A DNA stretch of 64,000 bases from Gnetum montanum (lineage: Eukaryota; Plantae; Gnetophyta): assembly GCA_015680685.1 (NCBI GenBank), contig MNCI01001077.1, positions 377,627-441,626 of the forward strand, in the 5' to 3' direction. The notes below the pieces were generated by a model that worked only from the letters and a program-made list of their open reading frames with translations, was not told the DNA's origin and made no database searches. The position numbers and the translations under genes are program-made. Positions within the stretch are counted from its first letter, which is position 1; every line of letters begins with the position of its first letter. Positions 700-33,239 of the stretch are shown here, piece by piece.

Positions 700-3600
700 A
701 TGGCCAGAGGCAAAGAAATAGTAGTCCGAGGATAGAAAGGACCCGAACTGACGTTCGCGGAGGAGAGTGAGGCGATGCTGCAGTGTCTAGCCCGCCCGAG
801 CGTCCCCGCATGGCCCGGATCTTCTGGCAGGTAGGCCTTTGACTCTGTTTTCATTGATTTTTAGCGCCTGTTTTCTTTGTAGCGTAGACAGTTTGCGTAG
901 GGTTTCGGCGTATACACCGAGCATGAAGGGTTTAGAGCAATATATCAGCGTAGACGCCGCGTGTGTTATTTTTAGCATAGACTGTCGCGGCTTCGTTTTT
1001 ACGGTATCTAGCGTAGACGATTGTCGGCGTATATGCTCAGCGTATACGCCGAGCATAAGTCGGATACTTCGCAGCGTAAGTCTGTTCGGCTTAAATTTCT
1101 ATATTATGCACGGCGTAGATAGTTTTTGGTATGCGATTTCTACGCCCAGCGTATACACCCAGCGTAACTGCTTTCGTAGGCCCAGCGTATACGCCGGGCG
1201 TAACTGTTTTCATACGCCCCACGTATACGCTGGGCGTAACTATTTTTCCTACACCCAGCGTATACGCCGAGTGTAACTACTTTCGTACGCCCAGCGTATA
1301 CGCCGAGCGTAACTGTTTTCGTACGCCCAACGTATATGCTGAGTGTAACTATTTTTCCTATGCCCAGCGTATATGCCAAGCGTAACTGCTTTCGTACGCC
1401 CAGCGTAACTATTTTCGTACACCCAGCGTATACATCGAGCGTAACTGTTTTTCCTATGCCCAGCGTATACGCCGAGCATAACAGTTAGAAAAATTTTCTG
1501 CGAATATCTAATTTCCAAAATGACGTTTTCAGTATTGATCTTTGGTGTTGTTTCAATGGCTTGCAGAGACATTGAGCCTCCCCTTCTAGTGATTAAGTTA
1601 GTTGGGGTTTTGACATGGTTTGGTCCTTTGGAGGATGGTGACCCGACCTCGAATTTGGTTGTTGAGCACAATGGGGTCTGGTTCCGGGACGGGGCCAGCG
1701 AATTTTTGGCCTTCTTGCTAGACCATTTCAATGTCGTGGTTTGGTCTCACCTAGGCGAGGATGTGGCATGGAGCATCATTGAGGCCATGTTGCCTGGCGC
1801 GGAGAAGGGCATCAGAATATTTATGGAGGATATTGATGAAAGGCTACTTGTCGCTTAGGGTGTTCCCCCTGGTGGTCCAAGGTCTGCCCGTCCGTTGACA
1901 CATGTGTGGGACCAGCTGCTACGGGGGCCCAACTATATCAACAACACATTGTTCTTAGCTGGCCGCGCGCACACTTTGTTTCAGAATCCCCCCGGCACAG
2001 TATACCGGGTGGAAAGGTAATTTCGTCTTAGCTTTGGTTATTCCTCTCTTTTTCACATTCAAATACTTAATCTCATTTCGACACATGTTTTTGCCTTCCC
2101 GCAGGCCAAAAGTTACACCAGATGGGGCCTACGCGGGCGACGATGGGATTGAATTTGTGCGTACGGCTGTGGAAGTGTTCAAGGTGGGTCCCACCCTTCG
2201 CGGGACCATTTTGGCCCACACTAGGGACGCCATGAAGAACTTCCCCAAGATATTTTCAAAGGCGTTTGCACAATGCGCCGCGCATGGCTGGTTGCATGCC
2301 GACTGGGCCCCTAATGGGCCAATTTTCCCATCTGCTTCTGATCTGGGTAAAACCTCAAAGTCCAACACTAGAAGTAAGTGGCAATGTTTCCTAGATGTCG
2401 TGTTTGGTTTGGTCAATTTCCAAGTGTCAAGCTAATATGAAGGTTTTGGGTTTGCCTTTACAGCTAGCACCACCTCCAGCGGGGATTCCGTTGTGACCGG
2501 GAGGACTGAAACNTTCATTTGACAGATCTGTTTCCCGCTATAGTGCCCGTATTAAGGGTGTTAAAGTAATTTTTGAATTATCACCCCAATTTTTTGCAGA
2601 TTTGTTTGGCGTGCCTACAAGTGTCGTAAAAATCGTTACAGACAGGATGCTTAAAGAAATTGACATGATCCGTGATCTAGAGGAGTGGTTAGGGGTGACC
2701 AAGGGTGCCAAAGGATTCCCAATGCAGGGGAGAACGAAGGTTGAGGAAGTCAACGAGCTTTATCCCCTATTTAGAGCACGTTTGTTTTCAAAGACTCTAT
2801 CACAAGTCAAGAGTCTTGGGGTCGAAGTAGTGCGAGTCATGCGCACTATTCTAGAGGCTAGCGTGCGCTACAACTGGGCTGAATTTTTATTATCAGGAAT
2901 GACCAAAGAGATAGAGCAGTTGCGTTCGAACATAGAGGCGCAATCCCATTTTACCTTTGCTTTCTTCGCCAGCTACATTCGTCGCTTGGCCGAATTTTTG
3001 GTGGTTCGTGGGGAAAACAAATTTGTTTTACGTGATAGGAACCAGCTATCTCACCCTTGGGTGAATCACTTATTCGACACAGCCAAGTCCCAAGGCACCC
3101 CCGAGGGGATTGATGAATCCCTTACGATCACTACGGGTGGATCGTCTGGTCCCTCGCTTCACACACGCGACAATATAGGGTTGGAACCTGATGAAGTACC
3201 CTATACTACAAAGAAGGCGGAGCGGGTGGTCAAGGAAACAATAGGCAAAGTGATGTCCAAGTTGGGGAAGCATGACAGCACGGTTGAGGGAACCAGTGAG
3301 ATTGAGCCGCCCAGAGTAAAGCGGATTCGATTTAAGATTCCTGGTAAACTTCTTATTTTTATCTTACTTTTCTTACAAATAGTTTTAACGGTTACTAGTT
3401 GTATGTATCTGACTTCATTTGTTTTGTATTGAGCAGTCAAGAGACACGATTTGCGGACCATACCAGAGGACGAAGAGTTAACCGACCCAGCGGGAGGAAC
3501 TGAATTGCTGGGGGAGGGAACTGAAGGAACTAGAGGAACAGGAGGAACGGGAGGTACTGAACCCCTAGATGATCAAGCGGAGACTGAAGGAATGTTCAGC

Positions 3601-4995
3601 AGCTTTCTTACAGGGGACCTTGAGCTTGGAGACCCCTCGACGCAGGAAGAGATCAGAGGGAACGGTATCTCTCTTTACTCAGTTATGTAGCCTAATATAT
3701 TCCTGGATTACTTTATTGTGAATTTTTTGTTTGACTCAGAGGAGAGCGAGACCATCCCAGAGAAGGAGTCAGAGATCCCCCCCAAAGTGCCTCCCAAGGT
3801 TAGCGGCTCACGCACTGATGGACCTTTTACTTGGATGGAAATGCCAAGTAAAAGGGATTTCGTAGTTGGGGTGGCCGAAGAGGTTGTCGAGTGGATCGAA
3901 GGGATCAATCATGACATAGGTATGGATGCGTCCAAATATTTTTACTATGTTAGAGTTTGATGCTCAATTCTATTTGTTCTAACGTTTGTCTTTTCCCTGT
4001 GGACAGGTGCCCAACTGAGGTGGGATCCATCCGAACCTGTCAATATGGAGAGTTTGCCTACACTTTCTCCTGAAGTTGAACAAGTGCCCAGACCTGTTTA
4101 CGAAGAGGTAGCAGAGGGCTTCGTTCACAATGCCAAAGTGATATGGACGTGTAGGCGCTGCATTGAACAATTGTGGCTCCAAATTCAGGTGAAAGAGAAG
4201 GAGAATTCTGAATTGTCAACGAAATGTGATGATCTGAAGGCCTGGTATGAGTTCGCCGCAACTAAATTAAGCAATGATCGCTCTTGGCGGACCTCTGAGG
4301 TTACGTATACAAGGTATTGGAACCTACTCAATTTCCATGCGAGGCTGATACAGAGACTAGGAGAGCGCAGGGCCCAAATTGATTTGCTGAATACAAAATG
4401 CCAAGATTGGAAGGCTTTCACCTCCAAAGTACGTAAATCGGGGTAAGATGAGAAGAACCACAAACACCAGTAGAAGAAGTCGCTAAAATAAGTATCTATT
4501 GAGAAGCGATAGTTAGAAATGTTTGTGGAGGGTCTTGGTCTACGCTCTGCCTTTGACACATTCTCCCAAAACACAATTGTAGAGATGGAATCTCCTAAAC
4601 GACGGATTACGATAGCCTCTGGGGAGGTGTCGGTGGGTGAGTTCTCTTTGAAACGTCCCACCTGGTTAGATGTTGACAAGGGGAAGGCTCTGGCAGATAT
4701 TGACTTGGGTCTCAATGGGACGGACTGGGCAAGTATTTCTGAAGAGGAGATCCTACGGTGACTTGAATTCGGCTTGGGGGGACCTCCTATGGTAAGCGTT
4801 TTGTCTTTTTGGATTTAATTGATTTGACTAATGTTTGGAATCATATCATTCGCTCATTTTTTGTGTTGATTATTTCCTCTTTGGTCTTTTCAGGATGAAG
4901 GCAGGGATGAGACTGGAGAAGTTCTCCCCAGTGGAACAGGGGCCTCTGATGCTGGTGGGCCCAAGGAGGACGATCCTCATGCCCCAGACGTTTAG
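700..4995 (+). pseudogene. Antisense 8-exon accessory gene, copy 1: degenerate FCP1/NIF-like domain + plant-transposon-type domain + acidic tract + coiled coil
   Basis: Exons 700-830, 1567-2016, 2105-2373, 2464-3343, 3437-3664, 3740-3919, 4007-4791, 4894-4995. All introns are GT-AG and phases match wherever checkable (exon 4 contains an N gap). A few in-frame stops (e.g. 733, 1856, 4444, 4471, 4510, 4759). Exons 1 and 2 have the same lengths (131, 450 bp) in copy 2. Confidence 0.85.
1141..1480. repeat. ~36-bp tandem repeat (~9-10 copies) built on palindrome GCGTATACGC, in intron 1
   Basis: Units TACGCCCAGCGTATACGCCGAGCGTAACTGTTTTCG at 1141, 1177, 1213, 1250... Confidence 0.9.
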
Positions 4996-5220
4996 CATTT
5001 TAGCATTTTTCGTTTTTCGATTTATACTGAAACTGTAACTTGAACATTATGAAATGAACAGAGATGGTTGATTGTATGTAATAACATGCATATATATATA
5101 TATATATATTTGTTGTTGATTTTGGGTTTAACATGGCATAGAAAAGTAAAATTTTTTGGTTCGTTTTCTGTTTTAAGTGCAATACAGGAAGCGATTATAA
5201 AAGTAGAACGAAAAGCAATT

Positions 5221-5548: not shown

Positions 5549-8500
5549 TCACTTCAGTAATTTTTTGATCTTTTTCGTTTTAATGTTAGATGATGTTTCA
5601 ATAGGTATGATCCGATACTCAGCGTCACCTTCGCTGATTACATTAAACGGTAATTCGGCCCAAGGGACCTCTGATGGAATGTCTTTTATGTTAGCACTTT
5701 CAGCTATTTCAATGTCCGTAGGGAGCTCTATATCAGTTTTTATTCGAGGGGGCACAGACGTTTCTGTTTGAGGAAGCTTTTGTTCCACGTCAGAAGATTT
5801 ACTGCTTACCGATGATTGTAGATCTTCATTATTTTGGCTAGGCTTTTCAAGTTCGATTTTCAAGCCTTGGTCCATGTCCACATGCGATGAGATAATAGGA
5901 GTAACTGCTTCGGCACGTATGACGATTTCTCTGCCTTCATAAGGCAGATGAATTTCCTGATGGATAGGGGAAGAGACAGCTCTCAGTTGGGCTAGCTAGG
6001 GTCTTCCTAATATTAGGTTGAACCCTGGCATCTCGTCCACTACTAGGAATTCAGTAGATGTCAGGAATTGATCTCCCACTATAAAGTCTAAGGTTATCGA
6101 GCTTTTCACCATTACGCATGACCCACTGAATGACTTTAAACATGTAGTCGTGGCTGGTTTAAGTAGTTCAGTAAGCCCTAGTTGCTCGATAATGTGGTAC
6201 GGCACGACGTTTGTTGCAGCCCCATCGTCTACATGGACCCTATGTATTTTAAATTGGTTTACACAGATTGTTATGAACATAGGAGCTATTGTCACCTCCT
6301 TCGTTCTTTTATCGACCTTGATGCTGTCGTCATGAAAGTTTAGAGGCTTAAGAGTAGTTCCATGAGGTGAGAACATCACCGCATGGATGGAGGGTTCGTT
6401 TGGGGGTAAATCCTCGCTCACCGGGATTGATGTTAACATGCACACTAGAGCTTCCCGATGCATTTGAGATGTTAATACTAAGTCATACAAGCTCAGTGAA
6501 GTGTTTTTTTGTTTTAATGCTTGCATGACTTGTGTCAAGGCGGCTGCGAATTTTTCACTGTTGGGGGTGTTTCTATTGGTGCTGATTGGATCCATTAGAC
6601 CCAACAGTTTTATCACCTGTCTTGTTGGTTTGTCAGTTTTCGGAGCTGTCATTTCGGATGATTGATGTTTTTTAGATGACTCACCTTCATTGCCTGTGCT
6701 TGGTTGATCGGTAGATGATGACATGGGCATGGAATTGACGGGAGTGGGCTTCGGTGGCCCCAGAGCTAACCCTTGGCACTCTCTCTCCATACGTTCACGC
6801 GCGAGTCTATCTCCGGGACGTTCTCGCGTGTGGCGTGGAGGTGCCGTTGGTTTTGGCATTTCGGGTTACCCTGGGAGTTTAACCACATATGGGATTGGAT
6901 GGGGTGATGCTTGTACTGTTGGATGTGCTTGGTTAGAGGGCCGGACAGGTAGCCTAACGACGTAGGGCTTGGGTTGGCGTTGTGTTTGTGACATAGGGGC
7001 TTGGTAGTCATCAGTACCTTTGGGTGTTCTAATGACAAATGGGGTTGGTTTCGGCAAAGGTTGGACCTCCGATGTTGGAGTGGCTGAGGGTACTTGGACC
7101 ACAAAAGGAGCAGGCTGGTTATGCGGAGTTTGTGCGTTTAGGGGAGTGACGGGAGGGACACGCACCACATATGGCCTGTCGCGTGTCGCGGTGTTAGGTA
7201 TGGCCACTGTCGGGGGTATCTGAACGACATACGGTTGTTGTAAAGGATGAGACAGCCGGGGTGCGGGTGTAGACGCAGGGACAGGTGGGTGAACTACGAA
7301 AGGTTTGTTAGACGTTTGCTGCGTATATTCGGGAGATGTGGCATTAATGTAAGATGGCTCAGAATCGTTGTCAAGGCAGACTGTACTGATGGTGTATGAC
7401 ACCTCTTTAATGTTTAAAGGGTCTTTATAGATCCCCATAGCTTGATTTTGCGGCTGAATAGGGTTTGCTTTGTCGAAGGTGATTTGTCCTTCATCAATCA
7501 TTCGCTGTAGGTCCTGATTCAAGGTGAAACAGTAATCTGTTCCGTGCTCGTTTCATTGATGATAATCACAAAAGCGATCCACCCTGAAGCCTTTAGGTAC
7601 AGGAGGCTCATCCAGAGTTGCTAGGCTTGGGTTCTGAATGAGTTGACAGAATCGATCATGTCTCTGGATGGGCGCAGGAGATAACTATTTATACTGCATT
7701 AAACCAACCTTTAGGAGCTGATCAAAAAGCAGGGATGGCTTCATGGGCAAGGGTGTATATTGAGAGGGTTCTTTCCTCTCAAAATTGCGTGTGCGGTTCG
7801 CTGGATTATTCTGTGACGATGATTCTTGTACAATCGTCGGAGTTGGTTTGTTGTAATTAGCAGGGGTTTGCGGCGGCCTAGTTGGTTGTTGTGCCCCTGC
7901 TATCGATGCTATGGTCATTTTAGCCTTTTCTTTATCTTTTTTAGCATGTTGATTTTTAAAGGCTATGTAGGCCGGGTCGTTGCTGTTTTGTCCTGCCTCT
8001 TCTATATTTTTAATTTGCTAGAAGGCTTGGTTGAGATTGAGCGCGTTTAGATAGTACAGCTTGGATTTAAAGAAATCGTTGACGGCCCCTTTCAAAATAG
8101 TGAGCAGGTATGTCTGGGAGATTTTCTTGTGCAGCTCATTAAGGGCTGCGCTCCACCTCTGGATAAATTTCTGGACCAGTTCAAGCGGTATCTGCTTGAC
8201 CTGAATGAGGCTGTCTAGTGTGGCCTCAGGTTTCAGGTTATATTTGAACCTGGTCACGAATTGGTGTAGTAGGTTCTCCAAGGAGGAAACAGAGTTTCTT
8301 GGGAGCGCCCTATACCAATCGAGTGCTCTCCCCGAGAGGGACATGGGAAACACGCGAAGAATTGCATGGGGCCATACTTATAGCAGTGCGCACTCTAACC
8401 TGAACGTTATTAAATGCGCGTTAGGATCTGTCTCCCCATTGTACTTGGTTAGCGTAGGTAGGGAGATGCCTGTGGGCAGAGTTAAAGGCGGGACGGAAGA

Positions 8501-9698
8501 GCTGATGGGGTCATCGTTATAGAAGTCTAATACCTTCAACTCCCCGTCAGCGGCTATCTTGAGACGTTTTACCTCGTCGGTTAATTCCTGCATCATTCTT
8601 TTAGCATCTGCCCAATGCTGAGCATTTGGGAGCATGGCGGTTTGGGCTTGTGGCACGCTGTATGAGTTAGACTGTTGAACGGTGGATTGGAAGGCTGAAA
8701 GTTACGTTGTTGGTGGTTGCATTTGTGGGAAGTGTACAGTAGGTGGCACTAGGGGCAATACATTATAAAGAGGAGGCTGTTGCTGCTATGGTCGCAGTTG
8801 TGCCTGGGGCACATGAGCTGGTGGCAACGTGTAGGGTGGTACGTAGTGGTGGGGGATCTATTGCGACGTCATGCCTATCATTGGCCATTGCCCGACCATG
8901 TTGTATGAGGGGGCTCCTTGTTGGGTTACGACAGTGAAAGGGGGTGTGTGCATTTGGACATGCGGGATGTAGTGGGCAGATGTGGACATGGGTATAACAT
9001 GTGGTATTCTTACCACTTGGGATTGGAATGTCACTCCCATGTTACTGTGAGGTGGCGGTGCTTGTGAGGATGAACCCATAGCTATAAAAGGGAAGGAGTT
9101 GGGCAAAGGGTTGCCCTGGGGAGGGACCTGGGCTGACGCGGATGTTTCTTGTAACGACGCTTGAGTGTGGGAAGAGTTAGGGGGTTGGAGGGGTATGACC
9201 TCCCCTGCGTCTGGGTTAAATATGGGGTTCATGTGGTTATGTGGACTAAGAGTATGATAGGAGTCTTCGTGCTCAGATTGGGCAGCGAATTCGTCCTCTT
9301 CGTCCCGTTGTGGATCTGCCGTAATTTGGTCTAGCGATTGGCTCCTGTGAAAAAGGAGCTGCGCAAAGAGTTCCGAGAATTGTTCTGGAATGGGGATTAC
9401 ATCGTATGGGGAAGGGATGAATTCATATCCCCCTTTGTAAAATATTTCAAATTGCCTTTTTACTTCCATTTCAGCCCGATCAACTGCCAGGCCAGCTTGC
9501 ATCTTAATGCAGATGAAGTTATACTCATCTTGGGTTATAACGTTGGCAGCAGGGTCTCTCCCTTGCAACCTCAACGACCGACGGGGCCCCACTGTGGATT
9601 TCCCTCCCATATGTTGTGTGACAGATTGCTGGGCAGCCGTTGTGTCTGAGATGTTAACGTTCTAGGTAGTAGCAGCGGTGAAGTTCATGGGATTCATG
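5549..9698 (-). pseudogene. gag-protease of element 1
   Basis: Gag core KYNGETDPNAHL...FPMSLSGRALDWYRALP...FVTRFKYNL; FCDYH-x3-H-x4-C knuckle (~7530-7575); protease VHVDDGAATNVVP...FNLILGRP; scattered stops; own stop at 5549. Confidence 0.9.
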
Positions 9699-10012
9699 AT
9701 GATAGACGTTTTGAGTGTGCAAGATTGATGTATTGGATAATGTAGTGTATGCGACTGGTGTAGACGAATCTATAGGGTAAGTATGCAGTGTAAACGTCGG
9801 CGTAAGTATGCAGCGTAAACGCTGGCATCAGTATGCAGCGTAAACGCTGGCGTAAGTATGTAGCGTAAACGTTGGCGTAAGTGTGCAGCGTATACGCTAG
9901 GGTTTATGTGCAGCATATACGCTGAAGAATCGAAAACGTAGACAACGGGGCAGCAAAAACGTTGATAAGCGTAGACGCTGAGGAGCGTGCAGTCAAACTG
10001 TTTAAGCGGAGG

Positions 10013-10029
10013 CCCTCCTTCTAGCGCCA
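10013..10029 (-). promoter_or_regulatory. Primer binding site, complementary to the 3' end of plant tRNA-Asn(GUU)
   Basis: TGGCGCTAGAAGGAGGG 5 nt inside the LTR end; plant tRNA-Asn ends ...CCCTCCTTCTAGCG-CCA (recalled, not searched). Confidence 0.8.
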
Positions 10030-10034
10030 AATTC

Positions 10035-11281
10035 TGTACCACCTGAAATCGTCGATCCTTGGCTAGAACGGGAAACAGAGACCGTGGGATCGCAGGGCGA
10101 GGACAGAAGACCCCACATTCGCCTAAGGGCATGCTGAAATGCACGAAGGTAGGGTACCTTGGGTGGTCCGCACGCGGATCAGACAAGGATTTCCCTGAGT
10201 GCCACCGAAGTGTTATACGCTGGGTTATGCGTAAACGGAGCGTAAATAGTGAAACAGGCGTAGATAGAACGTAAGCGTAAAGGACGTAAACAGAGTAGGG
10301 CGTAAACAGCGTAAACAAATATAGGCACAACGTAAGCGCATACAGGCGTGGACAGCGTAAACAGATGTAGGGTGTAAGCAAAAGTAAACGGTGTAAATAG
10401 TGGGCGTATGCGGGCGCAAACAGAGCGTGAACTTAAACAGGCATAAACGAAGCGTGGGCCAAATTAATGTAAAACTATAAAAGAACTTTCAACAAAGGTA
10501 AATAGTAGATTACAGAGTCAAAATGTTGTGCACCGGTCTAACGCAGTCGTGTAGGAACACAAGGCGGACGTAAAGCCCTGGTGGACGTAGGGACGCAACT
10601 GGTTAGCACGGTAGGCGGAGCACGGATTGTGCTTAGCGTACAGGACTTCCAGCGTAAGCGTAAGCGTAAAGGGGTTTCTGCAACGTAATTGCTCTACGTC
10701 TGCTCTAGTAAAATTTTTCTGACCTTAAAAATGCGGAAAACTGGGCTATTTATAGGGGTAGGGTTACTAGGAAAAGCGGACTGGGAGACACGTGGCGTAT
10801 AGACCGGGCGTTTACAATTTAGAAAGATGGTATACACTGGGTGTATACACTACAACAGGCCGGCGTATACGCTGGGTGTATACGCCGGGCGTGTACGCTG
10901 GGCGTAGACGCTGGGCGGATGTTGGCGTATACGCCGGGGCGTATACACTGATGGATGCTGGACGTCGACTTGCTTCAATTCTTGCTCCTGTTGCACCTGC
11001 TGAGCGTGCGTGTGAGACGTGTATGCAGAGTGTCGTGCGTAGACGCTGGGCGTGGATGCTGGGCGTAGACGCTGGGCATGGACGCTGAGCATGGATGCTG
11101 GGCGTGGATGCTGGGCGTGGACGCTGGGCGTATACATTGGCTCAACACTTAGTAAAAACCAGGTGTTTGATTCTCAAAATTTCCCGGTGTGACTTCAAAT
11201 GTAGCCAAAGTCATCTGTGGGTCATGGGGATCTGCTTTTTGTCAGACAAATGCTAAACTCAAAGATTTTTGTGGTGTTTCA
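10035..11281 (-). repeat. 5' LTR of element 1 (family A)
   Basis: Termini TGAAACACCAC...GGTACA on minus; TATA (CTATAAATAG) ~10746-10755; homologous to 27217-28408, 40471-41649, 19830-21365, 49058-50997. Confidence 0.92.
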
Positions 11282-11619
11282 AATGGTGCAAGGTCTGTCC
11301 ATGAAAATAGCGATAAAAGTAATATGACATATTTCCCTAGCAGAACATGCAACCATAACAGGTAAGACAATGGAACCCCACTTGTGCTATGAAAGGGTAC
11401 AACATTATCCATGATCACCCAAACCCTTATAATGGTGCAAGATCTGTCTCTGACAATGGCGATAAGGGTAATATTACAAACTCCCATAGCGTAACTAGCA
11501 TAGGTAGGTATCAACACCTAGTGCAGTGCACATTTTCAAAACAAATACAAATTATAGCAAAATGATAGAGAAAATGACCTAACGCATATATCACACAAGG
11601 AAGGTGAAGAACTACTTAC

Positions 11620-11738
11620 TAGGTGAGTGGAGTAGCCTCCCAAGTTTCGACTCGCACCTTTGAAATTTGCCCCAGAATTTCCTGTACTTCATCAATCCTA
11701 GCCAACTTGGTGTGTTTGCATTCAGTCTTTGGTGCCAT
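11620..11738 (-). pseudogene. Exon 1 of antisense accessory gene (family B, outer element)
   Basis: MAPKTECKHTKLARIDEVQEILGQISKVRVETWEATPLT followed by a phase-2 GTAAGT donor; TATA-like TATAAG ~11850; homologous to 41752-41870 and 55006-55115. Confidence 0.7.
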
Positions 11739-12389
11739 TGGTATGTCGAAATAACCTTTACGAAATCGTTAACTTACACTTTCCTTCTACTTTAGCCTAA
11801 ATCAACAACACTACGCTTGTAGTTGACCTTGAGGACGAGCCATATACTTATAAGTGTGATGGTGAAAACTTGCTATTTTTATTGCCAATCAGTGCAGAAC
11901 CTTCTCAAAGTATAGTAATGTCAGTTTGACATGAAGCGTAAATATCACCTCATTAATCACATAGATATCACATTAATTATAGTCCAAAAAGATCCTAAAC
12001 TAACGCATAGCTTATCATCTCGTAATCTGATCACATTAATTATGGTCTGCAACGATCCTAAATTAGCTATTTTTCCATTCTAGACATACCACATTATACT
12101 TTTAGCTGTATTTTATGAGGACTTTAAGCTAGCACCTAGGAAACCTTTCTTGCTCTTTTCTTACAAACTTTGTATATTGTAACGGTCTACTAAGATGTTA
12201 AACTGGTAGCCTTTTAACATATACCTCTAAAGCCTTATATCATTTCATCATGCTGACAAAAACAACTTAACTACTTTCTTTCTTGGCAATTTTGAAAGTC
12301 AATTTGCAATTGGACAAAGCTTTTCTTGCAGCCCTAGCCCTAACAAGCCTATACAGGGAAACCTTTAAACAACCTAATCTTGCAATGAT

Positions 12390-15300
12390 AGGAACCAACT
12401 CCTCCTCCTGTGACATAACCATAGCAACCTCAGAACCATCCCTAGACTAGCCAAAAGATTTGGTCCAAACCCTAGACCTAGAGGTTGGTGATGTGACTGA
12501 GGATCCCCTCACTGAGGTCTTTGTGGTTACACATAAAGGATACAGCAAAACTTTGAAGTTCAGTTCTCTCCTTGACCAAAAAATATAGAATGACATGTCT
12601 CAAGTTCTCCAAGATAACGTTGTGGTGTTCGCATGGTCATACGAAGACATGCTGGGTTTAGACCCATGACTAATACAACACAACATTGTGTTAGACCTGC
12701 ATATCAAAGTGGCTAAATAGAGAGCATGGAAGATTAACCCTGAAATTGCATTGGTAGTGTGTGATAAAATCACTAAGCTATATCGAGCTGGTTTTATCTG
12801 TGTGGTTGATTACTCAGGTTAGGTGTCAAACATCATTTTTGTTTCTAAGAAAATGGGAGGAATATGCATCTATATAGACTTCTACGATCTGAACAAGGTA
12901 ACAGTTAAATACAATTTCCCATTACCAAGTATTGACCAACTTATCGATACAACAGTTGGACATGCATTACTATCCTTTACGGATGGGTTTTCAAGATACA
13001 ATCAAATCCGTATCAACCAAGAACATCAACTAACTACAACTTTCATGACCCCCTGGGGAACTTTCTGTTATAGCATGATGTCTTTTAGGCTAAAAAATGC
13101 TGGAGCAACTTATCAGCATGCGATGACGTACATCTTTAATGATTATCTCTTAGAAAGATTGAACGACTATGTAGATGACATAGCTTTTAAATTTAGGAAG
13201 TCAGTAGATCACCCAGAGGATTTATAGTTAATCCTTAAACGATGTCTCAGGCATGACCTATGACTCAACCTAAGAAGATGTGTGTTTAGAGTTAAAATTG
13301 GATGCATGTTGGGGTTTTTATTATTGGAGGTTAGCATATAAGTTGACCCTGACAAGGTTAGGGCCATTGTTAACTTGTCACTGCCTACAAACCTCAAATA
13401 ATTGCATGGGTTTCAAGGTAGGTTATTATTTATCAGAAGGTTCATCTCAAAGTTGATAGAAAATTTACATCCCATGTAGCATCTACTCTAGTAGGGGATT
13501 AACTTTAAATGGACCGAGGATTGTCAGCATGCTTTTGATGACGTAAATAAAGAGTCGTTACATTTGCCAATGATTTTCCTGCCACAAAGGGATCAACCCT
13601 TCTACATCTACCTGGAAAGTTTAGATATTTCCATAGCTATGTTTTTGTGTCAAAAGAGGGATGATGGATCAGAAATCCCCATCTATTATCTACGTCATGC
13701 TCTATTTTCATACAAAATGAGGTACAATGAAGTGGAGCGTAACTACTTGGCATTGGTTTTCACACTTAAGAAATGTAGATACTATCTTTCCTGTAGCTAA
13801 GTTAACATAATTTGCAAGAATAATATTCTATGGGTAATCACATATAATTTATATGAGAGTATTAAATAGCCTGATGGAAAGCCATCGCAGTAGAATTTTA
13901 CTTACACTACGTTGGCCAATCTTCTACGGAAGGCCAAGCGATAGCCGACCAACTTATTGCATCACGTATTAACGATCAGGCGATGATAAAGCCTAAATTT
14001 ATAGATGAACATGTACATATTTTAAGCCCTATATCAATAGGCCTCAAAGCAACATTACACTTTGATGGAGCTTTGACTACCAGAGGCGGTAATGCCACCG
14101 CTATCATCATGCTTCTCCCTAAGGATGTTCGCCCATTGGCTTACTACCTAGAATTTCCCTGTACAAATAATGTGGCAGAATATGAAGGGCTTCTCAGGGT
14201 ACTATTAGCAACTAGAGAACTAAATGTTCAGCACCTGGCAATCCAGGGTGATTTAATGCTCGTTGTCAATCAGATCACAGAAGTCTACACCTAAAAAGTT
14301 GTGCATCTGCAGCCCTCTTGCGATATGGCTAATGACCTTTTGAAATAATTTACAATGACTGATGTCTGACACATGCCACATAGCAAGAACACTATAGCTG
14401 ATGCACTAGCTATGTTAGCTTTAAATGTGCCACCACATTTGTTCGCCACCTTACTTACTTTAATGATCGAATGTATAGATCTTATCAGCTAACCAGTGCA
14501 AATCTCTTCTTTAAGTGTGGAGGGAACACCAAAATGGTATGACAACATTAAAACCTACCTTCTACGTGGAGAACCATCACACAAGTTGACATATGCATAG
14601 AAGGATGCAATCTACAAGTGTGCTAGACAATATGTCATCATTAGAGACAACACTCTATGTAGGTGCTCCTTTGATGGGATATTGTTAACCTACGTTAATA
14701 AAAACTAAGCACAAAGGATAGTTAGTGAAGTCCATGAGGGACTATGTGGAGGACACATAGCCCTGGGAGCCATGGCCACTAAAATCAGATGCTTAGGGTA
14801 TTACAGGCCATACATGGAATGAGATTGCCTTACCAAAGTTAATACATGTGTCACATTCTAGTGTAACGAAAATCTAATACAAGTGTCACCAACTAAGTTG
14901 CATACCACATAGATCACTTGGCCATTCCAACGATGGGGGTTAGATATCATAGGTCCCATCACACCGAAGTCTTCCACAGGACATAGTTTTATTATCACCA
15001 CCACTGAGTACTTCATGAAATGGTTCCATGCTATTCCCCTACGAAAGACTACATCTCAACATATTTTCCATTTTATCTTGGATAACATAGTAACAAGGTT
15101 TGTGCTTACCATGACTATTGTGACCAAAAATGGCCAACAATTTAGTAGTACCAAAACCAAATCTTTCTGCAATAAACTTGGTATTAAGCAATCTTTTTCC
15201 TCACCATATTACCTACAAGAAAATGATCAAGTGGAAGTAATAAACAAGGTGGTTATCAATTTACTAAAAAGGATGCTCAGCAGAAACAAGAAACAATGGC

Positions 15301-15776
15301 ATGAGCAAATCCTCTATGTGCTATGGGCCTATTGTATGACATGCAGAATAGCTACGGGTAGGACACCATGTAGCCTGGTCTATGGATCTGAAGCAGTGTT
15401 TTCCCTTGAACTAAAGGTTGCCTCACTATGGATGGTCCTCTCCATGGTTACAAATGAGACTCAATACAATGAGTCCAGGATCATGGATCTAGACTCAGTG
15501 GAGGAGAACTACATATAGACACTTAACAACATCAAAAAATATCAGGATAGGAAAAGGCAGAAGCATCATCGCAACCTGTATCAGCAACTGATCAAGAAAG
15601 GAGACTTGGTCCTTAAATCCATTCGTGAAGCATTGAACAAATTATTTGCATGATGGGAATGCTGCTTCCTAGTTTTCAACGCATATGACAACGAAGCATT
15701 CAAGCTAGCAGACATCAATGACAATGAGCTTGCAAACCCAATGAGTCATATGTACCTAAAGCAGTACCACATTTAG
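12390..15776 (+). pseudogene. pol: RT - RNase H - archaeal-type RNase H - integrase (degenerate)
   Basis: FPLPSIDQLID, DGFSRYNQI, YVDDI; LHFDGA...CTNNVAEYEGL...QGD; VHEGLCGGH, WGLDIIGP, LWAY; many stops; start approximate. Confidence 0.92.
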
Positions 15777-15808
15777 ACGTTAGCTTAGCTAGAATACAAG
15801 GTAATACA

Positions 15809-17061
15809 TGAAACACCATGAAATTTTGACACCTTGATGATTCAGCAAAGTCTCAAGGCTTAGACAAATATTTTCAACAAGTGGCACATCTCAGCAAGTT
15901 TTCATTTTTCTTTCGACTAAGGACCTACTACGCTACTCTACGTAGCTCAACGTAGTAGACTCCAGGAGAAAAAAATAGCACAAGGGATGCACAACAACAA
16001 CACTTTAATTTCACAAGCTAGCCATGTTCAAAAATCATAACTTTTTCCATACTACGTTGTGTTACGCTATGCAGCGTAATGCAACGTAATGCAAGCAACA
16101 CGATTGACTTAGCCACAGCAACAAAGATAACGAAATTTAGGTAGTAGCATTCATTACGCCACAATACACTATCTAGCGTATCACAACATAGTCATGGGAC
16201 AATTTATTTAGTGGAAGAGACAAGGTCAAATGACTGGTCTTCTTAAAGGATGGTTACGCTATACTATGCTTCAAAGAGTAACACAGTGTACCGCCACAAG
16301 ATTCAATTATGGCACATCAAGTCAATGGCATTTTGTGGGTCTAAGACACATATCATCTAAATTGCATTTTTCTCCTAACCCTAATCTTATAAATACCCTA
16401 GCAGAAAACACTCAAAGGGTTGGCAATTTTTTGACAGTGTTGGCAAAAAATTGGTGAGATGATGAGAAAGATTTGGTAATAGAAGAGCATCAACGGTGAC
16501 AGAGAGAACCTTTTGATCAGAGATTCCAAGTTAGCAGACACTTTTCTTCGAGCTTGACTCCCTTATAGCTAGATTGGCTAGAACAAGGTACATTGGCCTT
16601 TGCTTTTTTAATCTCTAATTAGCTTCTTGTTGGTAGCAGACACTTCATCCAAATCGAAGTCTCTTGTAAATCCCATTGTATTCACCATATTTATCTATAA
16701 GGTAGATCCCAGATCTCAGGATCATGCATGTTCCAAATTCAATTCATTGCACCCTATTTACATTGAATTCTACAATAATTTCATATAATTTACATCACCT
16801 TCATTGCCTTTGAGATCTAATCTTGGAGCAGATCTTGTTTTCTCATAAATCGATAATATACTTGCATATCAAATCGTCACCTCGTTATATGATCATTAAA
16901 AAATTTACTAGACTAAGTAAGTCCCTGTCTGATCAACAAGACCATTTAGGAAACCTTATATTAATTTTCTCTAGCATGACCCTTGTGTGGATCCAAGGTT
17001 AAAACTGTGTACATGAAAATCTCCTCAGTGTTTCCAGCAACTGACATTTTCTCTCGTTACA
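15809..17061 (+). repeat. 5' LTR of element 3
   Basis: TGAAACACC...CGTTACA; TATAAATA ~16388; aligns with 59625-59983 + 61444-62326. Confidence 0.93.
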
Positions 17062-17067
17062 ATTTTT

Positions 17068-17081
17068 TGGCGCTAGAAGGA
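17068..17081 (+). promoter_or_regulatory. PBS (tRNA-Asn type)
   Basis: TGGCGCTAGAAGGA just after the LTR. Confidence 0.8.
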
Positions 17082-17316
17082 TGGCTTGAACCTTCGATCT
17101 ACGTTTCATGGGTAGTATTGTAAGCTATCTATACCCATTATTGACTAACGTAAATGTGATACCTCAATGGTTTTTTACGTGATTTTGTGATATAGATCGG
17201 TTTCCCTGATGATTCCTCTGGATTCCATCAGGATAGAAAGCCCACTTTTGCCTTTATCTAGTTTTCACCTTTTTGATCTCTATCCTTGTTATCATTACCC
17301 TCTAGCTGCGTAGAAA

Positions 17317-20300
17317 ATGGCTACATCAACCACCACTATTGACACTACTAGCTTCGAACATCCCTAGACACTACAAGTTACACCCACTGTTGTCAAAACA
17401 CCAATAAGTCCAGTGCGGCCATGCTGGTCCCTCAGGATTCAAAATAAAGAGCTTGAGGGACACGCTCAGTGCAAGGAAAACTAAAACTTCATATGTGCCA
17501 AGCTGATGGTGAATCTTCCTATGTATCCCCAAGAACTCAAATAGAAACATGAATACGAGTTTATATACTACAATGAGAAGGAGTTCATTCCTTCACCTAA
17601 TGCCTCCATACCCCTGACGGACCAGCAATAGAGGCTTTTGGACCAACTGTTAATGGCCAAGACATCAACAAAATAATGAGATGAGATGTTTTGTGATGAA
17701 GCATCCCACAATGGGTAGGAGGACTTAGATTCCCACTCTGAGGGAGGTAGTCATGCTAGCTTGTCATGGCTCCTCCCTCCATAGCGTCCCATGTAAACCC
17801 GCTATTTATGGTCACAATGTCGTTATCATTGACTACCATTGACGATGTGGTGCATGCATCCTATCAGCATTTATTCTCTCCAACTACCCTCCCAAGTGGT
17901 ATTCCTTCATAGAACATTCCTCCATAGTCACAGTTAGCTAATCCATATCATTGCATACTTGTGCCTACGTCACCGTATGTGCACACAGTGCCTACTTTGC
18001 AATTACGCATAGCTCCTACATTCATCCTAGCTTACACGACAGGACCTTCCACTACTGCATGGTGGGCTCCAAATACATCACCCCCTATTGTGCATCCTAC
18101 GTAGATGTCCCATCTCACTCATAATCAACACCAAGTCTCAAAACTAGTAAATTCGAATGCAAGGTCATTGTCTATGCCCCAGTCTAAGTAAACAATGTAC
18201 CCTATGGCAAAATCGACCATAGTTGCCCCTCCTGCACCATCGATAGGTTGGTGGATGACATAGGAGGTATCACTTAAATGGAAAGTTCTAACTACATTGC
18301 TCATAGGCCATGCTACTGCCCCTATCCCACCACCCATCTTGGCTCCCCCTGCTATTCCACAACCAACCTCTTTGTTCTCAGGCCTGGATGAAGCCTTCCA
18401 GCTTATCCAAACCCTTACCGAGGAGGTTAAACATCTCAAGGCTATCCGTTCTGACATAATACAGGTCATGGATTTCTAGCATGAAGATCCTATCAGTCCA
18501 ATAGTACCCATTTTATCGTTACCTCTTGGGATGCCACTTCCCCATTTTACAAAATATAATGGGGAAGGTGATCCCAATGTCCATCTACTTACCTATAGGT
18601 TAGAGTCATTATTGCTGTAACAATGGCCACATACCATCATCCATGTATTTTCTATGTCCCTAACGGGTAAAGATTTTGATTGGTATCGTGCACTTCCACT
18701 CTCTTCCATCTCAACCTTGGAAGAGCTGCTAACTCAGTTCATGACCCATTTCAAATACAACCTAAAACAAGAAGTCATACTGGACCAGTTAATGGGAGTT
18801 AAGCAAGATCTAGTTGACCTAGTCCAAAATTTTATATAGTGGTGGAGTGCCACCTTGAATGAAATCCATGAACCCATTGTGGAGGCCCATTTTTTGGCAA
18901 TCTTCAATGGGGCAGTTAATGACTTTATTAAGTGTAAACTATATTATCTTGCTCCCTGCTCCCTCATCCAAGCCTTCTCTTAGACTAAAAGGATTAAATA
19001 TGCAGTAGAGGCTAGCAAAGACCTAGCATATGTGGTCTATAAAAATTCCCACAACAAGAGCAAGGACAAGGGCAAAGCTGCAACAACAATAGTAGTAGCC
19101 ATGGCCAAAGGGGCCAAAGAAAAAACTAACAAAAAAGTACCTATGGTGCCTGTTGAGGCCACAACTAGGTCAAACATTGCTAATTAAGAAATAGCACCCG
19201 CCCTTGAGGCTTCCCCACAACCGAAGCCTAATTTTGAGCATAAAGGTCACTAAAAATATAGGGCTCTACCTGTAAAGCCTTTAGAACTTCTGAAGAAACT
19301 ACTAGGAATTGGCCACATCCAACACAAAATAGTGTCACGAGGATGCTCTAAAGCATCACAGAAGGCAATGTGAGCTACTCAAGAACCCCTCATTGGCCCT
19401 GCCTAACGAGCTTCTAGTCCCTAAGAACTTTAAGTTGGATCATTTTTGTGACTACCACCAACTGTGTGGTCATGACACAGATTACTGCTAGGTGTTTAAA
19501 GATGACATTCAACACATGATCAACCAAGGTAAGTTGATCCTAGATAGTAGTAGTGTAGTTTATCTAGAAAACCAGTTCATGCATGTGTACCAAAACCCAC
19601 TAAATGCAAATAACGTAGGGTACAGTATCAATGTAGTGAGCATGGAAAGTGATGGCTAGGAATAGCCAAAGAAATCCTTTGTGTTGCATGTGCCTCCTCG
19701 CCCAACTTAGAAGACAAGCCCGTCAACATCGATGGGTGCGACTCAGCGACAACCTTTTGTCCTCCGAGTCCTATCTCATACTTTTGTTTCATAGCCAACT
19801 GTCGGTAAAACCATAGCTCAGCCCGCACCTATACCGTCCTAAATCGTCGATCTCTGGCTAGAATGAAATAGAAACCTAGAGATCTCTAGACACACACAGA
19901 AGACCCTACCTTCTCTTGAGGGTGAGTTCGAATTAACGAAGGCAGAGTACCTTGAGTGGTCCACACGTGGATCAGGCAAGGATTTCTCCGAATGTACACC
20001 GATGTACTGTATGCTGGGTTATATGTAAATGGCGTAACAAATGTAAAATGAAGCGTAAATGTACAGGAGCGTAAGTAGTAAACGTACAACAATGAATGAA
20101 AAAATGTAATAGATTTTAGCAAAGAAATGTAGCAATATTATTGCGAAATGAAAGTTACAATGCACCGGTCTAACGCAGTTGTGAATTTAACATAAGGAAG
20201 ACGAATAGCCCTAGTGGATGCAAGGATGATTGTGTGCTAGGTTCAACTGCAGGCACAGCATAAAGGTTGTATGCTCAACATGCAGAGTTGAGGTCTAGCA

Positions 20301-22620
20301 TACAGGGTTTTAGCTCTAGTTTCTTAGCGTCTCTGTTTCTTTGTTTTTCTCTGGTTTTTACTCAAACATTGCCAACCCCCTGGTCTAGTGAAAAATTGGG
20401 GTTTTTATACAAGTTTAGACGTGGAACTCGGGTTTTGAGAGGGGAGGATTGGCTGTGGAGTGCTGGACTCTAGGGTCGGGTGACATGTGGTGCATTGACC
20501 AAGTGCGAAAGAATGAAATTTTACAAGTATACAGCGTGCTGCATGCCAGCATATACCGCTGTACGCTAGTGTATACATGCTGGACGTATGACCTTGGCAT
20601 ATAGATTTGATCAAAGAAAAACAAGTCTTTCAGCCTTCAAATTTGAATTCGGATGGCATGAAGATGCTTCCTATAGATGTTCAGCTTGGTTGACCTTGAT
20701 GTCACACTGGTTGTACACTTTGTACATGTTGGGCATATATGCTAGGCATATACATTGGGAATGTAGGGTGGGCGTATATGCTGGGCATGTAGGATGGGCA
20801 TATATGCTGGGCATGTAGGGTGTACATGCTTAGCGTATGAACCCCAAAATGCATGATGTCAACATCTGATGAGTGCTCTATTCATGTGAGTTGATGCTTT
20901 GTACAAAGTCTTGCTCTATAGTGTTTTTTCCATGCCATCTTTGGGGGTTGCATATTGGGCGTATATGCCAGTCATACATGCTGAGTGTACATGTGAGCCG
21001 TGTATGTTGGGCATGTACGCTGTGAATGCATACTTGGGCATATACGCTGGGAATGCATACTTGGGCGTATACGCTGGGAATGCATACTTGGGCGTATACG
21101 TTGGGAATGCATACTTGGGTGTATACGTTGGGCATATACATTAAGAATGCATACTTAGTGAAGACTAAGTATCTGCAGCTCCAAAGTTGCCATTTTTTGA
21201 TAGCAGATGTCGCCGTGGTCATCTGCGGGTCCTAGGGAACTGTTAAGTCTGACTCTGCTTGAAGCTGTCTGTGGGGCCCTCAGGCTTTAGTGATGCTGGG
21301 GAACATCATGACTTAGCTTGATTATTGTTGGAGAAGTACTAAGCTCAAAATTTTGTGGTGTTTCAGCACCCACACCTAGGGAACCCTTTGTCATCAGGGT
21401 GCCAAAGTCGTTAGTTGCTCCTGCTATGCAGGTGCAAATCTCTAAGTCAACACCCCAACCAAAACCTACCAGGAAAAGAGAAGGGCTTATGATAGATAAC
21501 ACATCCAAGGATCGCCTTACACTAGGATTTGCTAAGCCTACACCCCTCACCTCAATGCCCTTTGCCCCACCTTCTTCTGAAAAAGGTGAAATTACGCAAA
21601 CACGATCATCTTCTCCCTGCCCAAGAAAATGAAATCCTCAATCAAAAACAATTCCTCTCGTACAGATCCATGTCCTGGGATGAATGGAAGAGGATAAGGG
21701 TAACAAACAACCAGACTGTGGGCATGATCTCCTCGATCCGTTTACACAAGTTAGGTAGGCTCTTAAACAAAAAAATACAATGCTAAACATCTATGACTTG
21801 TTGATGACATCACAAAAGCATAGTGAAGCCATGGTACACATGTTAACATCCATACCCGTGGACGAGAGCTTGCCAGAAGCTGAAAAAAAAATCTATTCAA
21901 TTATGCTTCCTCCCATTGTTGAACAACCATGGTCTTCCCAATTGACATTTCATGATGAGTCCATTAAGGATGACCCAGAAAAGGGTCAAGTAACAACAGC
22001 ACCTGTGTTCATCACTATCCAGGTCAGCCAGTATAGGATCCGGAGAGTACACATAGATGATGGGACCGTTGCCAACGTCATTCCATTCCCCATCATGGAA
22101 AAACTAGATTTTCTCGACTAGATCAATCCCATAAAAATGTCATGTTTGAAGTAATTTAACAGGGCATGAGTACAATTTAAGGGAACAATACACATCAACT
22201 TTGTAGGAGGGGATGAATTCCCCACAAACGTAGTGTTTATCATCATCGAGGAGATGCCCTGCTTCAACTTAATCTTAGGAAGGTCTTGGTTAGCTTAGTT
22301 AAGGGTAATCTCATCACCCATTCAATAAGAGATTCACTTGCCTTATGCAGAAGGGGAAGTGATCATCCATGGTGATAAGATTACCCTTGAAGCGGTTAAC
22401 AACCTGGAAATTGAATAGGGTTCACAGGTTGAAATCCTCAAAGATCAAACCCCTATCCCAACAATTGAACAGGTTGACATAGTGTCCAATGAAAGCTTGA
22501 CTTGGGCTAAATTACCCTTCTAGAGAGAAGATGGTAACGTAGAGGAATGTTGTAATAAGCCTTCTCATCCATACAAATCATTGAACCTAAAAATGGTTAA
22601 TATATAGCTACAGAGCTAGC
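17317..22620 (+). pseudogene. gag-protease of element 3, interrupted by solo LTR 19830-21365
   Basis: KYNGEGDPNVHL, SLTGKDFDWYRALP, FCDYHQLCGHDTDYC, VHIDDGTVANVIP, FNLILGRSWL; many stops; end approximate. Confidence 0.88.
19830..21365 (-). mobile_element. Solo LTR, family A-related
   Basis: TGAAACACCAC...GGTATA termini on minus, perfect TSD GCACC (19825-19829 / 21366-21370), no PBS or PPT; 24-bp repeats at 21027-21140. Confidence 0.92.
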
Positions 22621-23009
22621 AAATGAACATATTTGTGTGACATGTTATATTAGTCCACATTGTTTACTATTACAGAATTTATGCTCTTTCTGGTTGCATT
22701 ATTCTTGTTATGCTTTTTCATACACACCTTGGCCCGAAATGGCCTTAAACTAGTTACGGCCTACTACAACTTAAAATTGGAAATTCTATTTATCCCTGTA
22801 CGCATACGATGGCCTAACCCCAAATGGCCTTAAACTATTAGTGGCCCATAGTGGCCTAAAATGTGATACACTTCCCTTCATAAAATCAAAAATCAAAATG
22901 TTATTTTACAATCACATTGACCAAAGAACGTTACTTTTTATTCCCTTTCATTACAACAAAATGTTGGCGAATGTCATCATGCTACACATCCCTTTTTTTA
23001 CCACATCCA

Positions 23010-26000: not shown

Positions 26001-26760
26001 ACTTTGTCAACGGTGATGGCATGATACAAAGTCCACCCCTTATCTAGCCATCCAGATTCTCTACACTTGGTAAAGAATTTGGCATAATGAATAAGGTAGT
26101 GTTGGATTTCAAATCCTAGTTATCCTAGGACACCAGCATGCACATTATGAATGGAAGTAAATTCCTTTATGGATATTTCAGACATAGTTAACATGTCCTT
26201 ATCACCTTGCAGATCATTCACATTGATAAAAAGCCTATGCCAAAGAATATAGAAAATTCATTATACCTAATGCAAAATTAGCCAATAGTTAACACATCAT
26301 AATACCTTGAAAGGACTTACCCGCTAGCATAGTACACGAGGCCAGATGGGTTTTGAAAATAGGTTGTGAGATGATGAGCTATTGAACAACATTTAGTAGG
26401 CATGATAACAGTTAAACCTGGGCATCTCACAGATCTAAGATAAGCACCTCAAACCCTTGATGCTCTGTTCACGATCCCTTCTACCTATGACTTCGATTGA
26501 CCCATCCAATAGGAATGTTAAAATACTCTGTGATGATCCAACCAGCAGCGTTTCTAGGATGATATTGGCCATTTCAGCTAACAGATGTGACCAAATAATC
26601 ATGCTAAAATTATGCAACAAAAACTATAGAAACTCCCATGTGCCCTTCCAGAACCAAACCACCTCTCCCCCTACATAAGCATGGGGAGAAGGAACATTAG
26701 CCATGGGGACATTTAAGCAGCATAGAATGCCCACAATGTCCAAAATGATTAGGACAGGCC
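23010..26760 (-). pseudogene. Antisense accessory gene copy 3 (family B), exon 2 to last exon; exon 1 displaced to 41752-41870
   Basis: VLIILDIVGIL, VVWFWKGTWEFL*FLLHNFSMIIWSHL, FQNPSGLVY; LFINFFGVP, YPLFRARAFPK, WYNWSKNF; His/Glu/Pro-rich last exon; CTTAC (GTAAG donor) sites at 26316, 25951, 23295; ends approximate. Confidence 0.8.
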
Positions 26761-27216
26761 TTTGTGTGACACTTTACAATAAAATGCACTAACATTAGAA
26801 AAGAAGTTTAGACATACCAACAATGCTGCAACAAAAAAAAGAGCTCACAAGAATCTGCTAGCAACACTGAGGTTCTCATTACCTTGACTCCCAGAAAATC
26901 ATAGGTTACACTAGAAGTGCATTACCAAAACCACCTAAACCCTTGAGATGGTGCAAGGTCTATCTCTGACAATGGTGATAAAGGTAGCACCGCATATTTT
27001 CCTAGTGTAACAAACAACCATTACGGGCAAGGCAACGAAGCCCCATTTGCACTGCGAAAAGGTACAACACCTAGACTCTTGAGCAGTTACGTACTGTGTT
27101 TGTAGAATATTATCCAAGATCACCCAAACCCTTGTGACGATACAAGGTCTGTCTCTGACAATGGTGATAGGGGTAATATTACAAGCTCTAGTAGCTTAAC
27201 TAGTACAGGCAAGTAT

Positions 27217-28408: not shown

Positions 28409-28899
28409 AAAATTTGTTTTGATCACGTACTCATGCTCAAGTGCTACATTGTGTCTTGCAACTGCTTGAAAGTGTTACAGTCCACAACAGTATGCTCGAA
28501 GTTTTGAGTGTACTGGGTGTATCAGACATGTGGCTGAGTAGAGTGTGTCAGTGAGTAGATAGAGAGTGTATCAGGAGATGGTGATGTACTAACGAATGGT
28601 TCGATTTAGTTTTACCATGTGTGCTGTGAACATTGTCCCATATTGCTGCTTGTGATGAAGTGCATTCTTGTGCGGAAACCTCTAGGTGTCATCCTGCAAA
28701 CATGACTCCAAGGAGACAAGAAAACCATGAGTGAATAAATGATCCTAGACTTACATAGCTATAGATGGAACAAAGATGCTGAAGGAGATTTCAGGCACTA
28801 TATACAAATGGTAGCAACATTGGTAGGATCATCTGATGGTGAGCGATGCAGTGATGAAGTTTGAATGTGCCGGCGGATTGAGGAACCAGAGATGAACTT

Positions 28900-29220: not shown

Positions 29221-29252
29221 ATTCCAGGTCTCGCACGTACCTAAGCTTGTAC

Positions 29253-33030: not shown

Positions 33031-33239
33031 ACGTTGGAATGTTAGGTGTAAATGCCTGGAATGGGGTTCACAGGGGAACCGGAATGTAGTAATTTCTGTT
33101 TTATTTTAGATATATATATTTTTTTATCATTTTTTGGGCAAAATTCGGCGAAAAAATAAGTAAAAAGGCAAAAAGTGGCAAAAAAGTAGCAAACCGGGAG
33201 GCGGCGACATAAGCGACGGTGGCAGCGATGACGGAGTGC

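Follow-up and report, generated by a model that had tools for sequence, protein, structure and literature searches.

Ty3/gypsy retrotransposons of the Tat lineage have been described with extra open reading frames (ORFs) that combine a plant mobile domain (PMD) or a Tr28 domain with a coiled coil and lie in antisense on the 3′ side or in sense on the 5′ side (PMC4408406, PMC7264820, PMC9289625, PMC5418596, PMC1702500), and what the extra ORFs of plant gypsy elements do is treated as an open question (PMC7264820, PMC4408406). Here we describe an accessory gene in 64,000 nucleotides of Gnetum montanum DNA (assembly GCA_015680685.1, contig MNCI01001077.1, positions 377,627 to 441,626; the window, as we call this whole stretch), in which positions 2464–4791 are exons 4–7 of an eight-exon gene antisense to gag-pol. 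The gene is real and well supported, a variant of the Tat accessory-ORF type that is apparently new in its position between protease (PR) and reverse transcriptase (RT), in its introns and in its FCP1-like fusion.

In Tat lineages III, IV (Ogre) and V (Ustyantsev 2015, PMC4408406), the extra ORFs resemble this gene in that their host elements bear an additional RNase H (aRH) and a globular domain is followed by long helices, and those of lineages III and V are likewise antisense (PMC4408406). The Tat ORFs with PMD and coiled coil match PF10536 and are found either antisense on the 3′ side of pol or sense on the 5′ side of gag; the Gnetum gene is located between PR and RT, has seven introns, starts with a degenerate FCP1-like domain and does not match PF10536. 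The antisense TRP28/SMC-like ORFs of Retand and gene23 of Grande (gene23 was shown to localise to the nucleus) share with it the orientation, an apparent promoter of their own, long helices, nearby tandem arrays and the order RT, RNase H (RH), aRH, integrase (INT) (PMC11963269, PMC7264820). VANC of the VANDAL elements (DUF1985; VANC21, PDB 9LNK) also derives from a spliced accessory gene, has a coiled-coil region and acts with a motif amplified in cognate non-coding DNA; however, VANC is encoded by Mutator-like (MULE) DNA transposons of dicots and has been shown to bind and demethylate, whereas the present protein has no sequence match to it. As for Ogre, gag-PR ends in stops, non-pol DNA precedes RT and aRH lies between RH and INT. 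Unlike in Ogre, the spacer is ~5.7 kb long and holds a whole antisense gene, and the primer-binding sequence, common to four elements of the window, is presumably that of tRNA-Asn and not of tRNA-Arg.

The initial annotation of this DNA had also compared the protein with Arabidopsis MAIL3. This comparison with MAIL3 and the MAIN-MAIL1-PP7L system holds as an analogy in the possible pairing of a PMD-type with a phosphatase-type domain, not as homology: MAIL3 is a host gene with a PP7 (PPP-family) domain (PMC7156037), whereas here an N-terminal HAD/NIF-like domain, sub-threshold for NIF/FCP1 and without DxDxT, belongs to a retrotransposon. In the literature consulted, mostly open-access and without supplements (those of PMC6317226 and PMC4408406 could list a similar element), we found no description of an extra gene between PR and RT, of its intron content or of an FCP1-like fusion in a plant retrotransposon.

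The first copy of the gene, A, is laid out as follows, with pN/pS denoting the ratio of nonsynonymous to synonymous differences per site:

487–500, + strand: TATA-like box upstream of the gene, from a pattern scan; putative promoter
700–830, + strand: exon 1, coding part from the ATG; pN/pS against copy B 0.30; splice to exon 2 predicted
831–1566: intron 1 with a 36-bp tandem array, rich in RGCGTA; candidate binding sites
1567–2016, + strand: exon 2, degenerate NIF/FCP1-like (HAD-type) domain
2105–2373, + strand: exon 3; GT-AG introns; intron 2 joint in one relative's contig
2464–3343, + strand: exon 4, with an assembly gap at 2513
2515–3114, + strand: conserved globular domain (34–72% identity among copies), mainly helical, with a single beta-hairpin ahead of LFGVP; candidate remote PMD/DUF1985-type fold
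3310–3342, + strand: basic patch PRVKRIRFKIP, a nuclear localisation signal predicted from sequence
3437–3664, + strand: exon 5, acidic low-complexity linker; intron 4 and 5 joints in relatives
3740–3919, + strand: exon 6, acidic start, then an amphipathic helix; pN/pS 0.41
4007–4791, + strand: exon 7, with two long helices (predicted) ahead of a conserved C-terminal alpha/beta part
4894–4995, + strand: exon 8, acidic tail and stop; intron 7 joint in RNA reads and contigs

All seven introns have GT-AG ends and their phases join in frame. The N at 2513 is an assembly gap where a relative's contig has 162 letters, which leaves exon 4 of copy A incomplete and ~60 residues shorter than that of copy B; once these letters are counted, the product comes to ~1060 residues. 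Copy A is a pseudogene with seven in-frame stops, five in exon 7 and two upstream. Antisense genes keep their introns in elements that are copied through RNA, and the orientation would explain how the introns of this gene survive. Three further copies were located in the window:

33521–38013, + strand: copy B, between gag-PR (~40200–38490, −) and RT-RH-aRH-INT (~32750–29255, −)
23000–26770, − strand: copy C, with approximate ends and without a located exon 1; follows a + strand gag-PR
48870–54500, − strand: copy D, ends approximate; the 'C' of the initial annotation

The gene occupies the same location in three families, and all four copies are now broken. The order PR, accessory gene, RT is intact in B; copy D is flanked by PR (47855–48229, +) and a 5′-truncated RT (from ~55330, +), and the interrupted neighbourhood of copy C has gag-PR before the gene and then DNA that precedes RT elsewhere in the window. 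TATA-like boxes equivalent to that of A lie at 33239 (+, B) and 55275 (−, D). In element B, stops close gag-PR, and the entire antisense gene fills the ~5.7 kb up to the start of RT (38490–32750, −). There, pol may be expressed by way of a giant Ogre-type intron or from an own promoter back-to-back with the accessory gene; a PR-to-RT splice joint was absent from four runs, at low depth.

The motifs that the initial annotation had reported for A are all in place, namely VIFELSPQFFADLFGVP (2566–2616), LEEWLGV (2677–2697), YPLFRAR (2761–2781) and YNW (2869–2877) in exon 4, then the basic patch, the acidic exon, KEKENSELSTKCDDLK from 4192 and RAQIDLL from 4369. The exon-4 block is indeed conserved far above chance, though in four copies and not three: the RRKRPP at ~52652–52675 belongs to copy D, and the further copy C (~26770–23000, −) carries the block as well. 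Exon-4 proteins are 72% identical between A and B and 33–36% in the other pairs, with Smith-Waterman z-scores of 28–162 against 300 shuffles in all five pairs tested; for exon 7, z is 25–56 in three of three pairs.

Exon 4 was under purifying selection as strong as that on the protease. Between A and B, the ratio of nonsynonymous to synonymous substitution rates (dN/dS) is 0.11 for the exon-4 core (197 codons), 0.08 for exon 7b and 0.17 for exon 2, compared with 0.09 for the protease control and 0.80–2.09 for four off-frame controls, three of them at 1.03, 2.09 and 0.80. With stop-bearing codons dropped, pN/pS lies below 1 in all ten A/B segments (0.15–0.50; synonymous sites saturated in five); exon 5 is the least constrained (0.50), and of the two exon-7 segments (0.18 and 0.15) the latter, 7b, is among the most constrained. 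For exon 4 it is 0.24 between A and B and 0.52–0.55 between the families of 33–36% identity, where synonymous sites are saturated. The C-terminal part of exon 7 (~4516–4755; RITI...W..V.KGKA...W..IS.EEI) is conserved in all four copies and has no known match; the initial annotation had not named it.

The initial annotation had likened exon 4 to PMD, Athila ORF1 and PF20167 proteins, and proposed a profile check. Exon 4 of A, B and C has no Pfam match to PF10536, PF03078 or PF20167; for PF10536, no row appeared at E ≤ 10 in A, B, C or the pieces of D, HMMER filters hiding most matches weaker than ~0.1. Neither a gathering-score match to PF09331 (DUF1985/VANC) nor a Pfam match to Transposase_28 (PF04195) was obtained for exon 4. 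The PDB sequence searches overall gave chance rows only (best E 0.045, on a His-tag stretch), among which a MED26 row (E 1.4) was rejected. Scans for loci related to exon 4 gave nothing in metagenome or viral contigs; those for the integrase gave nothing in viral contigs and two short metagenome loci. In the Atlas language-model comparison, all neighbours listed are from Streptophyta. Its top match (0.90) is an unnamed cluster, followed by DUF1985 (0.84; 81% of members), the best named family in both Atlas runs, which form one source of evidence, and PMD (0.82; 18% of members; rank 15 of 30), and Athila ORF1, PF20167 and PF04195 are absent from the neighbours listed. This lead-level signal favours the DUF1985/PMD part of the proposed kinship over Athila ORF1 or PF20167. 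The structure model of exon 4, made from three sequences, has a predicted local distance difference test (pLDDT) score of 35, and the order of elements in this low-confidence model (helices, hairpin, helix, GVP, later an NW helix) is one which we take to fit the motif order of PMD and DUF1985. Foldseek and VIA rows for the model were generic helical matches and were discarded; VANC21 (9LNK) was not among the matches listed, to which a pLDDT of 35 gives no weight. A common fold has been reported for PMD-C, DUF1985 and VANC (bioRxiv 2024.09.27.615353, PMC13547354). Altogether, the exon-4 domain is probably a remote relative of the PMD/DUF1985/VANC group, and the protein is not filed in any of these families; the pointers to the group, namely the language-model neighbours and the architecture of a globular domain plus coiled coil, are leads.

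In A and B (~36297–36329 in B), the basic patch is the last part of exon 4, and D has a counterpart; aspartate and glutamate make up 25% (A) and 27% (B) of exon 5. AlphaFold2 (AF2), run on six alignment rows, predicts for exon 7 two helices at residues 28–86 and 93–144 (59 and 52 residues; pLDDT ~46–77), which correspond to ~4090–4266 and ~4285–4440 of the window, and a low-confidence alpha/beta end at ~4516–4755. The heptad-like segment of the initial annotation thus stands as long helices, though as two with a break, and a home-made heptad score is clear in A and B only, being reached by 2/100 (A), 0/100 (B) and 21/100 (C) shuffles, and by 44/100 for the shorter piece of D. With moderate confidence, a coiled coil follows the globular domain, as in the Tat ORFs with PMD and coiled coil. 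Structure matches of the exon-7 model were rejected as generic long-helix rows (E at least 0.11). Neither A nor B has a transmembrane segment; the top 19-residue hydropathy is 1.29 in A, 1.55 in B and 1.84 in the decayed C. Exon 2 approaches PF03031 with E 1.6e-3 (A) and 4.2e-4 (B), i.e. 18.6 and 20.5 bits against a cut-off of 21.8, and lacks DxDxT, the site reading IKLVGV (A), VELIGV (B) and LDIVGI (C). Since this sub-threshold domain without the motif is nevertheless under selection, it is likely a pseudo-enzyme, judging from its sequence.

Splicing was followed in reads and contigs of relatives, mostly 85–95% alike, from RNA runs picked by species label, in which six introns of A were testable (inside 1520–5080). 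Joints occur at four of these: at introns 2 and 5 in one contig each of run X13, at intron 4 in run X13 and three oligo-dT reads, and at intron 7 in run X13 and one read; reads and contigs of relatives of A gave none at introns 3 and 6. Relatives of B have joints at two of seven introns, intron 7 (five reads and one contig) and intron 4 (one contig, with 8 intervening letters). No raw read was ≥99% alike to A, so that what is shown is expression of the family, not of copy A. First mates are mostly − over gene A in run X16, and likewise over the PR and RT regions of B in run X17.

The non-coding DNA of families A and B contains an amplified short motif, as the cognate non-coding regions of DUF1985/VANC elements do. 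Intron 1 of A has 33 copies of RGCGTA, against 2.3 in dinucleotide shuffles; the 5′ untranslated region (UTR) and long terminal repeat (LTR) of A have 33 (3.0 in shuffles) and three matching B regions have 15–23 each (1.0–1.5 in shuffles), compared with 1–4 in each of four coding regions of 3.4–4.2 kb. Its density is thus 13–45 per kb in six promoter, intron-1, 5′ UTR or LTR regions of A and B versus 0.2–1.1 per kb in four A/B coding regions. The observed/expected CpG ratio of A is 1.16–1.69 in non-coding DNA (1.69 in intron 1) and 0.67–0.70 in coding DNA. As the motif-rich regions are not mutually homologous, a single amplification does not explain them.

With this in mind, we tentatively propose, at a confidence just short of calling it probable, that the accessory protein is a nuclear, oligomeric, motif-binding anti-silencing factor of VANC-like type. 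A promoter upstream of exon 1, with its TATA-like box at 487, would make the accessory mRNA, and the basic patch would import the protein into the nucleus. There, the exon-4 domain may act as a remote PMD/DUF1985-type DNA-binding fold on the short motif that recurs in non-coding DNA of its own element, the exon-7 helices may oligomerise the protein such that clustered sites are read, and the degenerate FCP1-like domain could serve as a non-catalytic adaptor. In its full form, i.e. a sequence-specific anti-silencing system in which an antisense seven-intron gene in the PR-RT spacer encodes a fusion of a pseudo-CTD (C-terminal domain)-phosphatase with a remote PMD/VANC fold, and the motif in LTRs and intron is the target, we consider the proposal rather doubtful; such a system would converge on VANC in protein and target repeats and on MAIL3 in joining PMD and phosphatase domain. 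The broader resemblance to transposon chromatin proteins seen by the initial annotation is plausible for a spliced, selected Tat accessory gene laid out like the published extra ORFs with PMD and coiled coil (PMC4408406), but comes without a family match.

Several observations weigh against an anti-silencing factor. RGCGTA was chosen post hoc, after inspection of these very sequences, and is rare or missing around genes C and D, with 0 copies in the 801 bp upstream of D; Tat elements commonly have tandem repeats in any case (PMC11963269). RGCGTA contains a CpG and raises the CpG ratio by itself. For exon 4, Pfam gives no family in A or B and one weak, unrelated row in C, three word-index protein searches found no homologue, a profile search of 1.84 billion representatives returned 0 at E ≤ 0.001, and PDB sequences gave no homologue. 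Atlas scores below 0.9 are leads only, and that ten of the ten best family-bearing matches share a family or clan is matched by a third of shuffled proteins. As to splicing, two joints are known from X13 alone, a run whose RNA status is a guess, and run X16 has no joint listed and covers intron 6 ~40–60 deep, i.e. unspliced.

A possible, if somewhat unlikely, alternative is a nuclear helper of the life cycle without anti-silencing activity, be it a transcriptional activator, an RNA splicing or export factor acting at the PR-RT junction or a factor that targets integration, with exon 4 PMD-like or not. It draws on the same selection, basic and acidic parts and exon-7 helices; acidic regions and an FCP1-like domain would suit contact with RNA polymerase II, as is established for FCP1/SCP, and related elements are inserted here in matching spacer DNA of other elements. 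Such regulatory roles have been proposed for antisense extra ORFs (PMC7264820, PMC11963269). Yet a helper alone does not predict that one motif accumulates across separate non-coding regions, and the named Atlas neighbours are VANC/MAIN-type families. Self-restraint, in which the protein favours silencing or condensation in the manner of MAIN/MAIL1 at transposable elements (TEs), or the antisense transcript dampens genomic RNA, so that copy number is limited, appears improbable: TE silencing is released in MAIN/MAIL1 mutants (PMC5418596) and antisense RNA regulation has been discussed (PMC7264820), but selection on amino acids at protease level excludes an RNA-only role, and MAIN/MAIL1 are reported to oppose Polycomb silencing at direct targets (bioRxiv 2024.09.27.615353). 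We give similarly little credit to the idea that exon 4 is a new fold, probably still nuclear, that resembles PMD, DUF1985 and Athila ORF1 motifs by chance; all alignment-based searches were empty and the top Atlas match is unnamed, but DUF1985 and PMD are the sole named families among the Atlas neighbours listed, and empty searches are expected anyway, given that spliced genes in repeats are rarely annotated as proteins. Least probable are two further readings. One, a passenger gene without function, be it a host gene that was captured or a nested element, might be suggested by the introns, by an FCP1-like domain suggestive of genomic DNA capture at some point and by four broken copies, but is largely refuted by the selection results (pN/pS 0.24 in A/B) and by the one position kept in families with only 33–36% exon-4 identity. 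Against the other, an env-like membrane protein, stand the hydropathy peaks, the missing transmembrane helix in A and B and the antisense place between PR and RT; ORFs of the env-like kind are encoded in sense on the 3′ side of pol (PMC7264820).

The elements that host the gene are Tat/Ogre-like Ty3/gypsy retrotransposons with the order RT-RH-aRH-INT, part of a nest of decayed Ty3/gypsy elements that fills the window by self-BLAST:

27217–41649, − strand: element B, complete, 14.4 kb; LTRs 91% identical over 1157 aligned bases
4–357, − strand: integrase core of element A (PF00665, E 4.5e-16; self-BLAST to the B integrase)
5549–9700, − strand: decayed gag-protease of element A with an approximate 5′ end (Retrotrans_gag E 1.9e-7, Asp_protease_2 E 0.006)
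10012–11281, − strand: 5′ LTR of element A and its primer-binding site, which ends at 10029

Element B, whose target duplication is 5 bp with one mismatch, has the Pfam order RVT_1, RT_RNaseH_2, RVT_3, rve, and hence the additional RNase H of the Tat lineage; RT, RNase H, additional RNase H and integrase is the order given for Ogre and Retand (PMC6317226). Element D has RT_RNaseH_2 followed by RVT_3 in Pfam and an integrase by alignment to B. RT-RH-aRH is deleted from element A, so that its integrase abuts the accessory-gene promoter. Deletion edges adjoin this promoter in two elements (360–400 and 55300–55330), with RT-RH-aRH lost in A and the 5′ part of RT in D, and the accessory gene left whole. 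A and B have each inserted into the spacer that precedes RT in an element of a different family, and the two spacers match (11283–12494 matching 26948–27216 plus 41731–42637 by self-BLAST; insertions 10035–11281 and 27217–41649), which hints at a shared insertion preference. At 16177–17085, pol (12628–15800) is followed by one LTR, with a primer-binding site and then gag directly behind it, which resembles a tandem with three LTRs. Solo LTRs related to those of A and B lie at 19832–21366 and 49057–50997, each with a perfect 5-bp target duplication; the latter contains a 181-bp tandem array and interrupts the final intron of gene D. A further array, of 122 bp (43968–44493), lies in the 5′ leader of element D and lacks the A/B motif. 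The protease motif reads HVDDG or HIDDG instead of the usual D(S/T)G (6230–6250, 22050–22075, 39190–39210, 47855–47885).

In summary, a protein constrained as strongly as the protease, with expressed relatives and a candidate target motif, makes the anti-silencing idea directly testable. Surveys that take unspliced ORFs of at least 250 codons up- or downstream of the polyprotein (PMC6317226) would miss or fragment this gene, and spliced genes of the PR-RT spacer may thus be an overlooked class. If the exon-4 fold is PMD-like, the gene would also bear on whether retrotransposon or host PMDs came first, a question left open in PMC5418596.

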